Part shown: positions 1 through 5,297 of the stretch, one piece after another | Numbering within the stretch: position 1 is the stretch's first letter | Layout of the letters: the number at the start of each line of letters is the position of its first letter | Virus record (IMG/VR): IMGVR_UViG_3300045988_028789 | Coordinates: 1 to 5,297 of that record | Reading direction: 5' to 3' (one strand) | From: a virus | DNA: 5,297 bases | Position numbers and translations under genes: made by a program | Notes under the pieces: generated by a model | Databases searched by the model: none | Seen by the model: only the letters and a program-made list of their open reading frames with translations | What the model was told of the DNA's origin: nothing

Positions 1-55
1 AGCCAAAGCTATCGTAGAAGAAATCTACAAACTCAAGGCCGAAAGAATTGAAAAG
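1..55. repeat. Terminal redundancy from circular genome linearisation (copy 1 of 2), identical to 5243..5297
   Basis: Direct comparison: 1..55 (agccaaagctatcgtagaagaaatctacaaactcaaggccgaaagaattgaaaag) is identical to 5243..5297. This implies a circular 5242-nt unit genome. Confidence 0.9.
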
Positions 56-79
56 GAGATGAGCATATGGCATTCATAA
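56..79 (+). CDS. C-terminal continuation of the wrap-spanning small ORF (same gene as 5112..5297; the residues encoded in 1..55 duplicate 5243..5297)
   Basis: Same reading frame (codons gcc 2..4 through taa 77..79). It is listed separately only because the window is a linearised circle. Confidence 0.3.
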   Translation, partial: EMSIWHS

Positions 80-189
80 GCGTGAAGGAGGTCAAGAACG
101 CCATCCGGATTATGATGGAAATTCTTGAAAAGCTTGACATGATTTATCATGCACTTCATGATAACAAGGAGGAAGAGAACGATGGCTAA
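67..189 (+). CDS. Small hypothetical protein, 40 aa (MAFISVKEVKNAIRIMMEILEKLDMIYHALHDNKEEENDG)
   Basis: ATG 67 is preceded by SD AAAGGAG (51..57) with a 9-nt spacer. The TAA stop at 187..189 overlaps the ATG 182 of the downstream basic-protein gene (ATGGCTAA), indicating translational coupling. It was not in the supplied track (below length cutoff). Confidence 0.4.
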   Translation: MAFISVKEVKNAIRIMMEILEKLDMIYHALHDNKEEENDG

Positions 190-301
190 GAGAGTCAAGA
201 TGAGTACCAACAAAGACAAAAAGGTCTTTACCCAGACGGCGAAGAAAACCAAGGCCGTCAACGTAAGCCCGAAAAACATGCGCGGAGGAACGAGACTGTA
301 A
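182..301 (+). CDS. Small highly basic DNA-binding protein, 39 aa (MAKRVKMSTNKDKKVFTQTAKKTKAVNVSPKNMRGGTRL); analogue of phiX174 J / gokushovirus ORF8
   Basis: ATG 182 is preceded by SD AAGGAGG (166..172) with a 9-nt spacer. Eleven of 39 residues are K/R and there are no acidic clusters. The size, composition and position upstream of the scaffold/capsid genes fit the small basic ssDNA-packaging protein of Microviridae. TAA 299..301 overlaps the next ATG (TAATG). It was missed by the ORF track. Confidence 0.6.
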   Translation: MAKRVKMSTNKDKKVFTQTAKKTKAVNVSPKNMRGGTRL

Positions 302-543
302 TGCTTAAAAAATATTATGCAATTTACGACAAAGTGGCCAAGAGCTACAGCGGACTCTTCGAACAGCAGAACGACGCAGTCGCAAGCAGACTCTTTGAGA
401 GCCAGCAGAAGAACAAAGACAGCTTTATCAACGTGAAGCCGGAAGACTTCCAGCTGTGCTACATCTGCACCATGGATGACGAAACCGGCAAAATCATCGA
501 TAACACCAACATGTGCGTATGTGAGGGCAAGCCCAATGAGTGA
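301..543 (+). CDS. Hypothetical 80-aa protein with a C-terminal Cys4 cluster (CYIC-x15-CVC), a putative zinc-binding knuckle; occupies the position where gokushoviruses often carry VP5 (inference)
   Basis: ORF in track. ATG 301 overlaps the upstream stop (TAATG), with a GGAGG-like SD at 285..289. TGA 541..543 overlaps the ATG 536 of the VP3-like gene (ATGAGTGA). Four cysteines lie at residues 53, 56, 72 and 74. Confidence 0.55.
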   Translation: MLKKYYAIYDKVAKSYSGLFEQQNDAVASRLFESQQKNKDSFINVKPEDFQLCYICTMDDETGKIIDNTNMCVCEGKPNE

Positions 544-1012
544 GTTTCGAAGCGCGTACAGCGGACAGGTAAGGCATACGAGCCTGACCGGCAACGGCCA
601 CGAGCCGGAATATGAGTACAAGGTAACGGACGAAGGCCGGGAACTGGTAAAAACCGGCGAAACAGACGTCTATGCACTCATTCAGAGCCGTCTGGATGAA
701 ACCAAAATCGAAAACATCATCAAACGAGCAACATACGACCCGAATGCGCTGGGCAGTCAGGACTGGCAGACCAGCGAGACGATGACCGATATTTCGGAAG
801 CGCCGACAAACTACCACGAGTGGTATGGGCGTATCAAAGACGCGGAAGCGGAGTTTGACAAGCTGCCCATCGAAGTCAAAAACAAGTGGGACAACGATGT
901 GGAAAAATACATCATGGCCTATGGAACCCAAGAGTGGGCAGACAAAATGGGCGTAGCAAAACAGAAAGCCGAAGCAGAAAAACCGGCTGAAAAAAGTGAG
1001 GTGAAAGAATGA
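536..1012 (+). CDS. Internal scaffolding protein, gokushovirus VP3-like (158 aa from ATG 536; alternative upstream ATG 476 gives 178 aa)
   Basis: The N-terminus MSEFRSAYSG and the C-terminal block FDKLPIEVKNKWDNDVEKYIMAY resemble conserved segments of Chlamydia-phage-type VP3 scaffold proteins (recalled from family knowledge, not searched). A start at 536 gives an 8-nt overlap with the upstream gene instead of 68 nt. TGA 1010..1012 overlaps the ATG 1009 of VP1 (ATGA). Confidence 0.75.
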   Translation: MSEFRSAYSGQVRHTSLTGNGHEPEYEYKVTDEGRELVKTGETDVYALIQSRLDETKIENIIKRATYDPNALGSQDWQTSETMTDISEAPTNYHEWYGRIKDAEAEFDKLPIEVKNKWDNDVEKYIMAYGTQEWADKMGVAKQKAEAEKPAEKSEVKE

Positions 1013-2601
1013 ACCGCAACAGTGAATACAACTTTGCGCAAAATCCGCAGGTCGGAGTAAGCCGCAGCCGATTCCAGCGCAACAGCGACAGCAAAACGAC
1101 CTTCAACACGGGCGACCTCATCCCTGTCTATCTAGACGAGGTGCTACCGGGTGATACGCACCAAGTCGATGTTGCCTGTGTAATGCGAATGGCGACACCC
1201 ATCTTCCCGGTGATGGACAACGCCTTTTGCGACTTCTACTTCTTCTTCGTACCTAACCGCTTGCTCTGGGAACATTGGAAGGAGTTTATGGGCGAGAACA
1301 AGGAAACCGCATGGACACCTAAGACAGAGTACAGTGTGCCGCAGGTAACGGCACCGAAAGGCGGATGGGAAGAAGGTACGCTAGCTGACTATCTGGGGCT
1401 GCCTACCAAAGTGGAAGGTATCAGCGTGAGCGCACTGCCAGGCAGAGCCTATGGCCTTATCTACAACGAATGGTTTAGAAATCAAAACGTGACACAGCCG
1501 ACACTTGTAGAAGTGACGGATGCAACCACGACCGGCAAAAACGATGGCAGCGCTACCAATGACAGCGCTATCACACTAGCAAAGCCTCTCAAGGCAGCGA
1601 AGGTGTTTGACTACTACACCGGAGCTTTACCGGAGCCGCAGAAAGGCGAGCCGATTCAGCTTCCTCTGACAGGAGCTGCACCGATAAAGGCATACAGCGA
1701 AAAAGAGCTGACAAACATAAGAGACTCGTTTATGTGGATAGCAACAGCGTCGCCCATCGAGGTAGCAAACGTGGACAAAAACGGAACAAAAGCAAACGGT
1801 CTGCCGACCAACACATACATGGGTGCAGACCTGAGCGCAGTAACTTCCGCAACTATCAACCAGCTCCGACAGGCATTCCAAATCCAGAAACTTCTGGAAA
1901 AAGACGCACGCGGCGGCACGAGATACCGTGAAGTGCTGCGTGAACACTTCGGGGTTATTTCTCCTGACTCTCGTATGCAGATTCCAGAATATCTGGGCGG
2001 CTACAGACTGCCTATCAACGTATCTCAGGTTATCCAAACCTCTTCGACCGACGGCACGAGTCCGCTGGGCAACACAGCAGCGTTGAGTGTAACCACCATG
2101 AACAAACCTATGTTTACAAAGTCCTTTACTGAGCATGGTTTCATTATGGGTCTGGCAGTCGTCCGTACCGACCAGACCTATCAGCAGGGTATCGAGCGCA
2201 TGTGGAGCCGCAAAGGCCGATATGACTACTATTGGCCTGTGCTGGCAAACATCGGCGAACAAGCAATTTTGAACAAAGAACTCTATGCACAGGGCAGCGC
2301 AAAGGACGAAGAGGCCTTTGGCTACCAAGAGGCTTGGGCGGACTACCGCTACAAGCCCTCAAAGGTAACAGGCCTTTTCAGAAGCAATGCACAGCAGAGC
2401 TTGGACGCATGGCACTACGCACAGGACTACGACGCACTTCCCACGCTAAGTACGGCGTGGATGGAGCAGACCGATACCGAAATGAAGAGAACGCTGGCGG
2501 TGCAGAATCAGCCAGACTTCATCGCGGACTTCTACTTTATGAACAAAACAACCAGATGTATGCCGGTATACAGCATTCCCGGCCTCATCGACCATCACTA
2601 A
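1009..2601 (+). CDS. Major capsid protein VP1 (Microviridae F-protein family), 530 aa
   Basis: The N-terminal region [33 protein letters not shown]...[29 protein letters not shown] matches the hallmark conserved N-terminal block of gokushovirus VP1 / phiX174 F. The size is typical (530 aa). An SD-like GAGGTGA lies upstream. It is the largest ORF and is followed by an intrinsic terminator. Confidence 0.95.
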
Positions 2602-2612
2602 GGAAAGGAGAC

Positions 2613-2640
2613 AGCCGGGGACAAGACCCCGGCTATTTTT
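2613..2640 (+). terminator. Rho-independent terminator hairpin between VP1 and VP2 (8-bp stem AGCCGGGG / CCCCGGCT, 6-nt loop ACAAGA, then A + T5)
   Basis: Seen directly: 2613..2620 is the reverse complement of 2627..2634, followed by ATTTTT (2635..2640). It sits 12 nt after the VP1 stop. An SD-like AAGGAAAGGAG (2600..2610) lies immediately 5' of the stem. Confidence 0.6.
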
Positions 2641-2644
2641 GAAA

Positions 2645-3499
2645 ATGGTATTACCAGCCTTTTTAGGAGCCTTAGAAACAGGCACGAAAATACTGGGCGG
2701 CGTAAGCGGTCTTATAAGCGCCGGAACAGGCATCTACAACGCACTCAAAGGCACATCAGGTAGCGGAGCAACAAGCTCAAGCGGATACCAAACAAGTCAA
2801 GGGGCAAGCGGTTCGACCATGACCGGAGAAAGCGGGGTAAACGTAGACCAAACAAAAGACCTCGCAAAATACTTCCTTGGTCAAAGTCAGCAAGCACAAG
2901 GGATGCAGAGCTTGCAAAACAACAAAAACTCTCTCATGGCACTGGGATTAAACACTCTGGGAGCTATCCAGCAGGGCGTTTACAATCGTATCCAGCAAGA
3001 CGCAGCAATGTCCTACAACTCCGCAGAGGCAGCAGCTAACAGAGCATGGCAGGAGCGAATGAGTAACACAAGCTATCAAAGGACAATGGCCGACATGGAA
3101 AAAGCGGGACTTAATCCCATACTGGCCTACGCACAAGGCGGCGCAAGCACTCCGGGAGGAGCACAAGGAAGCATCGGCCAAAGCAGCATAAGCGCACCAA
3201 GCGTTGGAACGCAGTCGGCAAGTATGCCGACAATCTCCGGTACAATGGCAAACTATAGCCGCCAAAAGGCGGAAAGCTGGTCGTGGACAGACTCGCACGG
3301 AGAGCAGCACAGCAGCGGCTACAACAGCTATCAAACAGATTTCCCGGATTTAACGCCTTGGCTCAATCAAAACAAAAACAGCGGCGAAAAAGCCGGAAAT
3401 AACACGGTGGACGCGCTAAGCGGAGCTGACCACAAAGCAAGAAGCGGCAAAGTGCCAAATCTTAATCCGATGAACAAATATATTAACGGAGGCAAATAA
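2645..3499 (+). CDS. Minor capsid / DNA pilot protein VP2 (phiX174 H analogue), about 284 aa from ATG 2645 (the track uses TTG 2639)
   Basis: Composition is typical of gokushovirus VP2: a hydrophobic N-terminus ([27 protein letters not shown]), a Gly/Ser/Gln-rich low-complexity centre and a C-terminal [12 protein letters not shown]-type segment. It lies between VP1 and VP4. TAA 3497..3499 overlaps the ATG 3499 of VP4 (TAATG). Confidence 0.75.
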
Positions 3500-4521
3500 T
3501 GAGTTGCGAACGACCACTTATCCGCGTATACAATCCGAATGACCACAACATAACAGGGTCAATAATGACCTTAGAAAAGTACAGAGAAAGAACGCACAAT
3601 CCAACAGCAACTTATGAGAGCATCGCATACAGACCAGACGTAATGCTACTACCGTGCGGAAAATGTTTGGGATGCAGACTCAGACAGCGGCAAGATTGGG
3701 AAACGCGAATGCTGATGGAGTCAAAAACACTAACTCCAGTATGGTTTTTAACTCTAACATGGAATCAAGAATATGTGCCCGGAATGATAAGAGCAACAGG
3801 CGAACTTATACGTGGAGCAGTACACCAGTGGACAACGGGAGACGCGCCAGAAGTTGTGCAAATCCTATTGCAAAAGGACATGGTACTTTTTAACAAGAGG
3901 CTCCGAAAAAAGCAAGAAATGTCCGATAAATGGGGTACAGACCTCAGATATTTTTATTGCGGCGAATACGGCGAAACCACAGGCAGACCGCATCACCATG
4001 CAATCTATTATGGGTTAGAAATACCAGACCTCAAGAAAAAAAGAGGCAATAATCCATACTTTGAGAGCGAAACAATAGATAGAATCTGGGGAATGGGCAA
4101 TGTCATCATTGCAGAAGCATCACCGGAAACAATGGCGTATGTAGCGGGATATGTGACAAAAAAAGCCTACGGCAACGACACAAAACGATACAATGAACTA
4201 GGACTACCAGCGCCTTACTGCTGTATGTCACGAAATCCGGGCCTAGGATACGACTACTACCAAGAGCACAAAGAGCAAATGTACAAAGACGATGGGCTAT
4301 ATTTTAACGGCAAAAAAAGGCCCATTCCAAGGTACTTTGACAAAATGCAAGAAACTGAAAATCCCAAAAGGTTATGGGAAATCAAAGAAAAAAGGCAATC
4401 AAGTGCAATAAATGCACTTAAAGTCAAAATGTCAAACACAGACGTAACCATCGAAGAGCAAGGAAAAATTAAGGAAAAGAATCTCAGAGAACGCTTTAGT
4501 AAAGCAAGGGGGATTCTCTAA
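3499..4521 (+). CDS. Rolling-circle replication initiation protein VP4 (phiX174 gene A analogue; HUH superfamily endonuclease), 340 aa
   Basis: All three rolling-circle Rep motifs are present: motif I FLTLTW (nt 3745..3762), motif II HHHAIYYG (HHH at nt 3991..3999) and motif III with paired catalytic tyrosines YVAGYVTKK (nt 4138..4164; compare phiX174 A YVAKYVNKK). There is also an N-terminal CGKCLGCR Cys cluster. SD GGAGG lies at 3488..3492 with a 6-nt spacer. Confidence 0.93.
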   Translation: MSCERPLIRVYNPNDHNITGSIMTLEKYRERTHNPTATYESIAYRPDVMLLPCGKCLGCRLRQRQDWETRMLMESKTLTPVWFLTLTWNQEYVPGMIRATGELIRGAVHQWTTGDAPEVVQILLQKDMVLFNKRLRKKQEMSDKWGTDLRYFYCGEYGETTGRPHHHAIYYGLEIPDLKKKRGNNPYFESETIDRIWGMGNVIIAEASPETMAYVAGYVTKKAYGNDTKRYNELGLPAPYCCMSRNPGLGYDYYQEHKEQMYKDDGLYFNGKKRPIPRYFDKMQETENPKRLWEIKEKRQSSAINALKVKMSNTDVTIEEQGKIKEKNLRERFSKARGIL

Positions 4522-4530
4522 ATGGTGTCA

Positions 4531-4566
4531 GTGGGCCTAATCCTATCAAGAAACGATTAGGCCCAC
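4531..4566 (+). other. Perfect 12-bp stem-loop (GTGGGCCTAATC / GATTAGGCCCAC, 12-nt loop) 10 nt after the VP4 stop
   Basis: 4531..4542 is the exact reverse complement of 4555..4566. It is not followed by a T-run, so it may be an ssDNA structural element or origin/primosome-type hairpin rather than a canonical terminator. Confidence 0.5.
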
Positions 4567-4618
4567 ACCTAAAATTCATAGTCATTCACGGCTAAACAAA
4601 TCATCACTCATAAAAGTG

Positions 4619-4666
4619 AGGGGTCTCCTACGGGAGACCCCTTTCGTCTGCGCCCCTAGTAGGGGC
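4619..4666 (+). other. Two adjacent GC-rich hairpins (10-bp stem AGGGGTCTCC/GGAGACCCCT with a UACG-type tetraloop; 6-bp stem GCCCCT/AGGGGC with a 3-nt loop)
   Basis: 4619..4628 pairs with 4633..4642, and 4652..4657 pairs with 4661..4666. CTG trinucleotides sit between and after the hairpins (4647..4649, 4667..4669). They could be a weak terminator (CCCCTTTCG) or a complementary-strand origin-like structure. Confidence 0.45.
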
Positions 4667-4703
4667 TGCCGAGGTCACGAAGCGAATCATAAGTTCAATC
4701 ACA

Positions 4704-4754
4704 GTACACGCGCACGCACGCACGCGCGAAACGCGCACGCACGCACGCACGCAT
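4704..4754. repeat. Perfectly alternating purine/pyrimidine tract, (CACG)n/(CGCG)n tetranucleotide repeats in two 22-25-nt arms around GCGCG-AAA-CGCGC
   Basis: Seen directly: gtacacgcgcacgcacgcacgcgcg aaa cgcgcacgcacgcacgcacgcat. Alternation is unbroken over 4704..4728 and 4732..4754. It has Z-DNA-forming potential and is a simple-sequence (slippage-prone) repeat. Confidence 0.8.
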
Positions 4755-4815
4755 TCTATTATTTTATTCATTACTTGTTGTAGTCGTAGTAGTAGTGTAT
4801 GTGGAAAAGTTGAAT

Positions 4816-4846
4816 GTGATAATAATTCTTCGTTATCACGTGATAA
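4816..4846. promoter_or_regulatory. 14-bp perfect palindrome TTATCACGTGATAA (4833..4846) plus an upstream third half-site GTGATAA (4816..4822); candidate dimeric protein-binding operator
   Basis: TTATCACGTGATAA is its own reverse complement. GTGATAA at 4816..4822 is also the reverse complement of TTATCAC (4833..4839) and gives an alternative 7-bp stem with a 10-nt loop. Confidence 0.5.
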
Positions 4847-4874
4847 TTAACAACATTTCTCAGTTGAAAGTTTT

Positions 4875-4965
4875 GTTGAAAACTTGTGGAAGATGTTGAA
4901 ATATAGCAAGTTGCACAAAATCCTTTGTGCATATTGTTGTTGAAAACTTGTGGAAAGTGTTGAAA
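4875..4965. repeat. 27-bp direct repeat GTTGAAAACTTGTGGAARRTGTTGAAA (4875..4901 and 4939..4965; 25/27 identical, 64-bp period) with additional GTTGAAA / GTGGAAA reiterations (4801, 4864, 4968); iteron-like
   Basis: Seen directly in an AT-rich block. A 7-bp hairpin GCACAAA/TTTGTGC (4913..4930) lies between the two copies. Confidence 0.7.
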
Positions 4966-5000
4966 ATGTGGAAAACTCAGGAACCAGTTAGTATAAGCAA

Positions 5001-5077
5001 TCTCGCCTGCGGGCGAGAAACCGACGCCTTGCCCAAAATTGCTGCGCAACCTTGGGCAAAACGCCGGTTGTTTTTTT
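5001..5077 (+). terminator. GC hairpins (TCTCGCC/GGCGAGA 5001..5018; TTGCCCAA/TTGGGCAA 5029..5059 with an internal mini-hairpin) followed by a T-rich run TTGTTTTTTT (5068..5077); terminator-like element closing the non-coding region
   Basis: The reverse-complement arms were verified by eye. A T7 run follows 8 nt after the last stem. It would terminate read-through from VP4 before the promoter of the gene chain. The spacing to the T-run is slightly long for a canonical intrinsic terminator. Confidence 0.4.
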
Positions 5078-5095
5078 ACAGAAAAGCATTATAAT
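5068..5095 (+). promoter_or_regulatory. Sigma70-like promoter candidate: -35 TTGTTT (5068..5073), 16-nt spacer, -10 TATAAT (5090..5095)
   Basis: The -10 hexamer is a perfect consensus. The -35 matches 3/6 (TTGxxx). It sits about 15-25 nt upstream of the SD-like AAGGTGGTG and the first ORF of the + strand gene chain, right after a terminator-like element. Confidence 0.35.
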
Positions 5096-5111
5096 AGACT
5101 ATAGAAAGGTG

Positions 5112-5297
5112 GTGTTTCAAATAACAGAAGCACGAAGAAAACAACTCAACACCAGCGTAATAAAGCCGTCAGAGCAAGAAGATTTCGAATACCTCATCAA
5201 AAAACTTTACAGAGCGCTCAATCGAGCATATACTGTAGAAGAAGCCAAAGCTATCGTAGAAGAAATCTACAAACTCAAGGCCGAAAGAATTGAAAAG
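5112..5297 (+). CDS. Small hypothetical protein spanning the linearisation point (continues at 1..79 by wrap; roughly 65-72 aa depending on start), helical and charged, unknown function
   Basis: The frame is open from 4992 through the wrap to a TAA at 77..79. It contains no ATG. Candidate starts are GTG 5109/5112, or a non-canonical in-frame ATA 5121 placed 6 nt after an SD-like AAGGTGGTG (5106..5114). The translation (..EARRKQLNTSVIKPSEQEDFEYLIKKLYRALNRAYTVEEAKAIVEEIYKLKAERIEKEMSIWHS) looks protein-like. Its stop overlaps the ATG of the next ORF by 13 nt, a coupling pattern. It lies just downstream of the candidate promoter. Confidence 0.3.
   Translation, partial: MFQITEARRKQLNTSVIKPSEQEDFEYLIKKLYRALNRAYTVEEAKAIVEEIYKLKAERIEK
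5243..5297. repeat. Terminal redundancy (copy 2 of 2), identical to 1..55
   Basis: Exact 55/55 identity with the window start. It is consistent with a circular ssDNA phage genome assembled with overlapping ends. Confidence 0.9.

Follow-up and report, generated by a model that had tools for sequence, protein, structure and literature searches.

A hairpin element directly downstream of the Rep gene

What is the function of the three hairpins that directly follow the replication gene of a gut gokushovirus? The locus lies in a 5297-nucleotide (nt) stretch of viral DNA (IMG/VR record IMGVR_UViG_3300045988_028789, positions 1 to 5,297; hereafter the window), which is a complete circular gokushovirus genome with a unique length of 5242 nt. 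VP4 (3499..4521, plus strand) encodes the rolling-circle replication initiator (Rep), and downstream of it extends a non-coding region of ~590 nt that starts with the hairpin cluster. We conclude that the first hairpin, H1 (4531..4566), is best explained as a hairpin version of the phiX174-type Rep origin element, inverted relative to the genes, while the second and third, H2 and H3, are separate and likely of terminator type. We give this reading a probability of roughly 0.55. It provides a concrete, testable origin candidate for gokushoviruses, conserved from Chlamydia phages to gut phages.

The three hairpins had been described in a first-pass annotation of the locus, and their stem coordinates, lengths and loops were reproduced. 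In H1, positions 4531-4542 pair with 4555-4566 in a perfect stem of 12 base pairs (bp), closing a 12-nt plus-strand loop, CTATCAAGAAAC (minus-strand loop, GTTTCTTGATAG). H2 (plus strand, 4619-4628 with 4633-4642) has a 10-bp stem and the loop TACG and is followed by TTTCGTCT. The core of H3 (plus strand, 4652-4657 with 4661-4666) comprises 6 bp and a 3-nt loop, and belongs to an extended, interrupted plus-strand helix at 4644-4672 (TCG / GC / GCCCCT-agt-AGGGGC / GC / CGA). Folding of 4522-4700 as DNA gave -35.3 kcal/mol, compared with -16.6 +/- 2.8 for shuffled sequences (z = -6.7; 0/200 shuffles were equal), and folding as RNA gave z = -6.8. Apart from H1 and H2 the genome has no perfect hairpin of at least 10 bp; the mean for shuffled genomes is 0.025. 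An Rfam scan found no family in 4522-4700, and its sole hits in the window (E = 0.26 and 0.61) were far under the gathering scores.

H1 stands out by its conservation. Read on the non-coding strand, the hairpin and its flank are GTGGGCCTAATC-gtttCTTGATAG-GATTAGGCCCAC-TGACACC (the minus strand of 4522-4566 in full is GTGGGCCTAATCGTTTCTTGATAGGATTAGGCCCACTGACACC). The terminal heptamer is the complement of a GGTGTCA box (4524..4530), which lies directly 3' of the hairpin on the CTTG-bearing strand, where it reads TGACACC. The loop core is invariant and the stem covaries in ~80 relatives. Among 80 genomes selected by VP4 similarity alone, 76 have H1 ~9 nt downstream of the VP4 stop, in every case with TATCAAG on the coding strand and never the reverse. 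The CAAG of the loop, read on the coding strand, is invariant in 78/78 relatives. All close relatives in GenBank and IMG/VR carry H1 a few bases past the VP4 stop, with (G/A)GTGTCA ahead of it.

We scored 14 stem pairs in alignment A2, which contains 30 distinct H1 sequences and in which the GGTGTCA box is invariant. Compensatory double changes occurred in 9/14 pairs, and 88% of the cells were paired, compared with 17-47% when the partners were slid. The covariation score was 0.337 versus 0.108 in shuffles, none of which (0/500) reached the observed value. Distant gut gokushoviruses, with VP4 ~47% identical, keep the position of H1, the GGTGTCA box and the loop CTATCAAGTAA, on stems quite unlike that of the window (CTCAGCCAAGTA, CCTAGCCCAGTACC and others). 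The reverse complement of the loop is (T)TTCTTGATAG in the clade of the window and TTACTTGATAG in a second gut clade. Covariation, the check that the first-pass annotation had named, is thus present for H1, and its broad claim that the hairpins are selected DNA structures linked to replication stands, above all for H1.

Two other explanations for H1 were tried and rejected. With arms of 12-16 bp that covary freely and are spaced by 10-13 nt, H1 is unlike the host-matched 11-6-11 dif site of XerCD. A kissing interaction between the H1 loop and a coding-strand copy of its motif (4766..4782, see below) was rejected for the absence of correlated changes.

The same element in other gokushoviruses

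Sequence comparison shows that H1 and its GGTGTCA flank (4524-4566) are a copy of a composite element carried by most Gokushovirinae. This element consists of a covarying 9-16 bp stem, a loop containing CTTG(A/T)T and a TGACAC box whose GAC begins 17 nt after CTTG. H1 has a stem of at least 9 bp with compensation, the loop motif CTTG[AT]T and the TGACAC box at the 17-nt spacing (CTTG-ATAGGATTAGGCCCACT-GACACC on the minus strand). It departs from the others in placement, the element lying on the non-coding strand.

In Chp2, SpV4 and phiMH2K we found one dominant hairpin each, with ACTTG(A/T)T in its coding-strand loop. These hairpins are located at 2904-2941 in Chp2 (loop tctACTTGAT), 512-544 in SpV4 (loop attACTTGTTATA) and 3296-3335 in phiMH2K (loop ggaccctACTTGTTGTAA), all on the coding strand. 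We extended the comparison to 79 diverse environmental gokushovirus genomes, whose VP4 is 31-100% identical to that of phiMH2K and which were oriented with VP4 on the plus strand. CTTG is present in the plus-strand loop of a perfect hairpin of at least 9 bp in 59 of the 79, and CAAG in only 1. GGGCCTAATTA and GTGGGCATAAT are frequent stems among the coding-strand elements and form one family with the H1 stem GTGGGCCTAATC; TGACA(C/G), the reverse complement of the GGTGTCA box, follows the hairpin in nearly all of these elements. An 18-nt sequence, ATTAGGCCCACTGACACC, is identical between the minus strand of the window and genomes L276, L284 and L290.

A profile, R1, was built from coding-strand elements only, with no gut-clade sequence (alignment A4). 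It is a sequence-only model, since RNAalifold run on the MAFFT alignment returned no consensus pairs, the stem registers being different. The best match of R1 in the window was 4522-4564 on the minus strand (E = 6e-5, 15.6 bits, model positions 12-55 of 56). In 79 gut relatives it gave 52 significant matches, all of them (52/52) on the minus strand. The inverted element is also found between VP1 and VP2 in the faecal gokushoviruses PQ006607 and OM869558, and overlaps the VP4 start in KT264797. The inversion, seen at three different genomic positions among related gut phages, is therefore no local accident.

The sole outcome of a host search was a free 5.8-kb contig binned with a Prevotella metagenome-assembled genome, which carries the inverted element; a Desulfovibrio prophage carries the element on the coding strand. 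One environmental contig of 8366 nt (L283) has two different origin-type hairpin elements, at 3187 and 7663; an assembly that is chimeric or dimeric, or the joining of two phages, might account for this. The literature that we searched contains neither a description of a gokushovirus origin hairpin nor a mapping of the replication origin of gokushoviruses; older papers on SpV4, Chp2 and phiMH2K were outside its scope, and a prior mention there is possible. A study of enterogokushoviruses describes dif sites and no origin (PMC7062461).

Resemblance to the phiX174 and G4 viral-strand origin

The gene A protein of phiX174 cuts at CAACTTG^A. The viral-strand origin of phiX174 and G4, the nick site of this protein and the only microvirus Rep origin to have been defined by experiment, reads CAACTTG^ATATTAATAACACTATAGACCAC. 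In GenBank, phiX174 is annotated with its 'origin of viral strand synthesis' at the A that follows CTTG. We found the CTTG-N17-GAC spacing in 48/64 distinct coding-strand elements, in the window, and in phiX174 and G4. The stricter pattern CTTG[AT]T-N15-GAC occurs once in the entire G4 genome (0.1 expected), at the viral-strand origin, and once in the window, within H1 (minus strand, 4550). Of the phiX174 nick core CAACTTG^ATA, the minus strand of the window retains CTTGATA (7/7), while the second gut clade has ACTTGATA (8/8), also on the minus strand. Overall identity between the element of the window and the phiX174 origin is 17/30 nt.

VP4 belongs to PHROG 942 (E = 4.7e-104) and matches Pfam REP_ORF2-G2P. 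Its HUH motif is PHHHAIYY and its tyrosine pair YVAGY (Y-x3-Y); both Y214/Y218 and the H-x-H residues are invariant in comparison with distant relatives (alignments A1 and A3). By analogy with phiX174, VP4 would bind the box and the hairpin and nick to begin and end rolling-circle synthesis. The loop with its nick site might become accessible when the supercoiled replicative form extrudes a cruciform or, at termination, when the DNA is single-stranded. VP4 is predicted to cut the minus strand behind CTTG, where the bases opposite 4547 and 4546 meet, and the GGTGTCA box would be the counterpart of the GAC box found 17 nt after CTTG in phiX174 and G4. With the unit on the non-coding strand, the straightforward consequence would be that this strand is displaced and packaged.

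A facultative cassette with H2 and H3

H2 and H3 are located in a GC-rich facultative cassette of ~190 nt (4567-4755), together with an (ACGC)n palindrome. The cassette is missing from KT264798, MG945135, L011 (97% identical VP4) and many others, and in cassette-free relatives H1 joins directly to sequence equivalent to ~4755 of the window. Where the cassette is present, H2 and H3 come in five sequence versions, all of which fold (minimum free energy structures, 14 cassette variants), in agreement with selected structures and not with chance. The H2 stem has 7 G-C pairs of 10 and a short T-run after it, the tail being TTGCGT in other cassette types; a terminator scan called it on the minus strand only. 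Several H2 variants contain a coding-strand T.G wobble, which fits a function at the RNA level. Since H2 and H3 are dispensable, GC-rich, variable in sequence with a constant fold and placed after the last gene of the operon, they are most likely, on evidence that is weak, terminator-type or 3'-end hairpins of the VP4 transcript, separate from the H1 element.

The first-pass annotation had instead favoured a complementary-strand origin like that of G4, with the host primase starting next to CTG trinucleotides that flank the hairpins. The CTGs lie one base away from the positions given there, at 4648-4650 and 4666-4668, and are not flanks of the hairpins; both are enclosed by the extended H3 helix. 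CTG is not enriched, occurring once per 107 nt genome-wide, and among 27 distinct cassette variants it is present at the first site in 3 and at the second in 5. Comparison of the G4 complementary-strand origin region (3884-4019) with the window gave only chance words of 7-8 nt (E >= 1.2), and the ssoA CS-6 motif TAGCG(T/A) is absent from both strands of 4522-5110.

These results make it improbable that the hairpins fold in the packaged strand and recruit the host primase, RNA polymerase or primosome for second-strand synthesis. The structures are strong, every microvirus requires such a signal, and conserved, covarying hairpins in two clades of very small microviruses have been tied tentatively to negative-strand initiation (PMC9865509). 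Against this, the CTGs are unconserved and paired, similarity to G4 and the CS-6 motif are lacking, and H2 and H3 can be absent from relatives with 97% identical VP4. The likeness of H1, on the opposite strand, is to the viral-strand or Rep type of origin in phiX174 and G4 and not to their complementary-strand origins. That Chlamydia, Spiroplasma, Bdellovibrio and gut phages have the H1 element in common also fits a shared Rep better than differing host enzymes. A complementary-strand origin must nonetheless exist somewhere, and candidates for it are a hairpin at 4912-4931 and the (ACGC)n hairpin.

In MG945391 and MG945136 a 'hypothetical protein' is annotated over H2, H3 and the (ACGC)n palindrome (L002 986-1216 and L006 1021-1254). 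We rejected a protein-coding cassette, as the start codon in the window is ACG and the open reading frame (ORF) is probably spurious. In L060 (MG945694, ~655-690) the H1 loop motif recurs in another hairpin, as TATCAAGA within the loop of H3.

A coding-strand copy of the loop motif and the weight against an origin at H1

A partial copy of the origin-loop motif, ATTCATTACTTGTTGTA, is present on the plus strand at 4766..4782, with no stem and no GAC box. It is the second-best match of R1 in the window (E = 0.023) and covers only the loop part of the model (positions 19-35). Its AACTTG|TTGTAG sequence is kept in 71/78 distinct relatives. In 3 relatives the CTTG core is broken (AATTTG, TATTTG, AAGTTG), which, set against the invariant loop core of H1, mildly favours H1 as the cut site. 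Many cassette-free relatives (L011, L019, L024, L059 and others) have in their non-coding region a small hydrophobic ORF (MNFYPWNDIFWIILMLILL...) that lies ~45 nt past the coding-strand motif and is absent from the window; it is possibly a lysis or membrane protein.

The conserved copy could be the real nick site. H1 and its box would then be the binding locus of VP4 only, the nick would fall at the coding-strand AACTTG^TTGTAG (4771-4782), in an AT-rich stretch adjoining the Z-DNA-prone tract, and the coding strand would be packaged. We regard such a division as rather unlikely, although it has several merits. Besides being conserved, the motif fits the consensus loop CTTGTTGTA of most gokushoviruses. 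The accepted polarity of the Microviridae would be preserved, and separate bind and nic loci have a precedent in pMV158 (PMC1851628). The motif, however, has neither stem nor GAC box, and its core is broken in relatives in which the CAAG of H1 never varies. A division of this kind would also leave unexplained why the nick motif is retained in the H1 loop, and why substitutions and G.T pairing are biased towards the minus strand (see below).

The coding-strand copy is one of several points that weigh against a Rep origin at H1. The Microviridae are taken as positive-sense, and an origin on the non-coding strand conflicts with this. No experiment is known to map a gokushovirus origin. The likeness to phiX174 is confined to the core of 7-8 nt and the spaced GAC, and R1 has no match on the phiX174 fragment at E <= 1. 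A terminator role for H1 itself is possible, given that a T-run (at least 5 T in 8 nt) follows it in 25/53 distinct variants, and cassette-free relatives have a T-run after H1 itself. The terminator part of our conclusion has its own weakness in H2, after which there is only a short T-run and no plus-strand call by the scan.

The first-pass annotation had offered terminators of the VP4 transcript as its alternative. For H2 and H3 this is reasonable; about half of the H1 variants in relatives, too, have a T-run behind them. A role of all three hairpins in RNA alone, where they would terminate or stabilise the VP4 transcript, is very improbable. Their place directly past the last gene of the operon would suit such a role, as would the GC-rich stem, tetraloop and short T-run of H2, the wobble pairs in some of its variants and the T-runs behind H1. 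A terminator, on the other hand, needs neither an invariant 8-nt loop nor a conserved upstream box. Most gokushoviruses have the homologous hairpin ahead of VP4 or in a gap between other genes, and in the window H1 is followed by ACACCTAAAA, which has no T-run.

Which strand is packaged?

A complete origin-type element is present on the non-coding strand in every member of the gut group that we examined, and puts in doubt the premise of the first-pass annotation that the coding strand is the encapsidated one. We consider it possible, though doubtful, that the animal-gut gokushovirus group of this genome rolls off and encapsidates the strand complementary to its mRNA, and that its members are negative-sense microviruses. 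The inverted element, an asymmetry of substitutions and a palindrome rich in G.T pairs are each expected if the non-coding strand is the single-stranded one.

We polarised substitutions at 225 four-fold sites in 29 genomes of the window clade. On the coding strand, G>A changes outnumbered C>T by 211 to 76 (per-base ratio 0.33, p = 6e-19), and C>A outnumbered G>T by 80 to 33. Seen from the non-coding strand, these are surpluses of C>T and G>T, as expected from damage to a strand that is single-stranded. A second inverted clade gave the same sign, with ratios of 0.54 and 0.15, while one clade with a coding-strand element showed the opposite for G>T (8 versus 0); the two such control clades are small and underpowered. 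The four-fold sites have reached saturation, and a similar asymmetry could arise from codon selection that disfavours a final T. Base composition was rejected as a test of polarity, because the four-fold AT skew of inverted clades (+0.56) overlaps with that of genomes with coding-strand elements (-0.95 to +0.45; phiMH2K, +0.29).

The (ACGC)n palindrome (4708..4754) is a Z-DNA-prone tract of alternating purines and pyrimidines that forms a continuous 19-bp hairpin with G.T pairs on the minus strand only. In the window the minus strand of the palindrome folds at -16.8 kcal/mol and the plus strand at -9.2. The minus strand is the more stable in 59/59 distinct relatives carrying the palindrome, with 247 G.T pairs versus 19; relatives without the cassette lack it. 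Rfam gave only a chance miRNA-like match to it (E = 0.26). As a control, flanks in genomes with coding-strand elements showed no folding bias (29 versus 29).

The substitution and folding asymmetries thus hint at antisense packaging. If this were true, the antisense strand would be the packaged one in an abundant group of microviruses of the human and animal gut, and the assumption that all Microviridae are positive-sense would be overturned. Strand-specific virome analyses would be affected, and the strand relevant for hairpins, damage spectrum and priming signals would change. The orientation of the element could serve as a marker of polarity that is readable from metagenomic contigs.

Iteron field and genome context

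Further downstream on the plus strand lies an iteron field (4798..4976), with five copies of GTTGAAA (4863, 4875, 4895, 4939 and 4959) and TGTGGAAAA at 4800 and 4967. GTTGAAA occurs nowhere else in the genome on either strand. No other non-coding block is conserved as widely as this field in distant gut gokushoviruses (query positions 308-577 are kept in 45 records). TGTGGAAAA is the reverse of a relaxed DnaA box, TTTTCCACA, and the perfect TGTGGATAA is found in some relatives (L059). Between the iteron groups, at 4912-4931, is a conserved 8-bp hairpin (TGCACAAA-atcc-TTTGTGCA) that is also present in a distant clade (L059-L066) and is possibly a host-dependent priming site.

The circularity of the genome follows from a 55-nt terminal overlap (bases 1-55 equal 5243-5297, circularly permuted). 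All recognisable genes are on the plus strand; besides VP4 they are VP5 (301-543), VP3 (476-1012), VP1 (1009-2601) and VP2 (2639-3499). Between VP1 and VP2, an 8-bp GC hairpin at 2613-2634 followed by ATTTTTGAAA looks like a terminator and might act as an attenuator behind the capsid gene. Two GC-rich hairpins lie at 5001-5018 and 5021-5078, with T7 after the second. They could be a terminator or a small structured transcript ending the non-coding region; a TATAAT-like hexamer and a Shine-Dalgarno-like GAAAGG stand downstream of them, before the next ORF.

Comparison with known systems

Intrinsic terminators resemble H2 in the GC-rich stem, the tetraloop, some T residues (a weak T-run in the case of H2) and the position past the last gene, and are unlike H1 in that they need no invariant loop or conserved flank. 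The complementary-strand origin of G4, with three hairpins and a primase start by a CTG, is like the window in being an intergenic hairpin cluster of a microvirus; the window differs from it in showing no sequence similarity, in having unconserved CTGs within a helix and in that two of its three hairpins are dispensable.

The origin stem-loops of circular Rep-encoding single-stranded (CRESS) DNA viruses, namely geminiviruses, circoviruses and nanoviruses with their loop nonanucleotide, are closer in design. As in H1, the nick motif lies in the loop of a covarying stem, and, as in the window, iterons lie close by and the Rep is of the HUH type. In these viruses the virion strand is set by the way the stem-loop points, and is not necessarily the sense strand. 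They differ from H1 in an unrelated loop sequence, another Rep lineage and eukaryotic hosts.

The element on the coding strand of other Gokushovirinae shares with H1 the stem family (GGGC[CA]TAAT), loop motif, flank and spacing, but is reversed with respect to the genes and lies ~200 nt before VP4 rather than directly after it. The phiX174/G4 viral-strand origin, in turn, is part of gene A, on the coding strand, and does not form a hairpin, whereas H1 is intergenic, on the non-coding strand, and has a 12-bp stem in place of the spacer. The two have in common the CTTGAT(A) core and a GAC 17 nt on, and their initiators, the phiX174/G4 protein and VP4, are homologous HUH proteins with a tyrosine pair that presumably use the same cut-and-rejoin chemistry.

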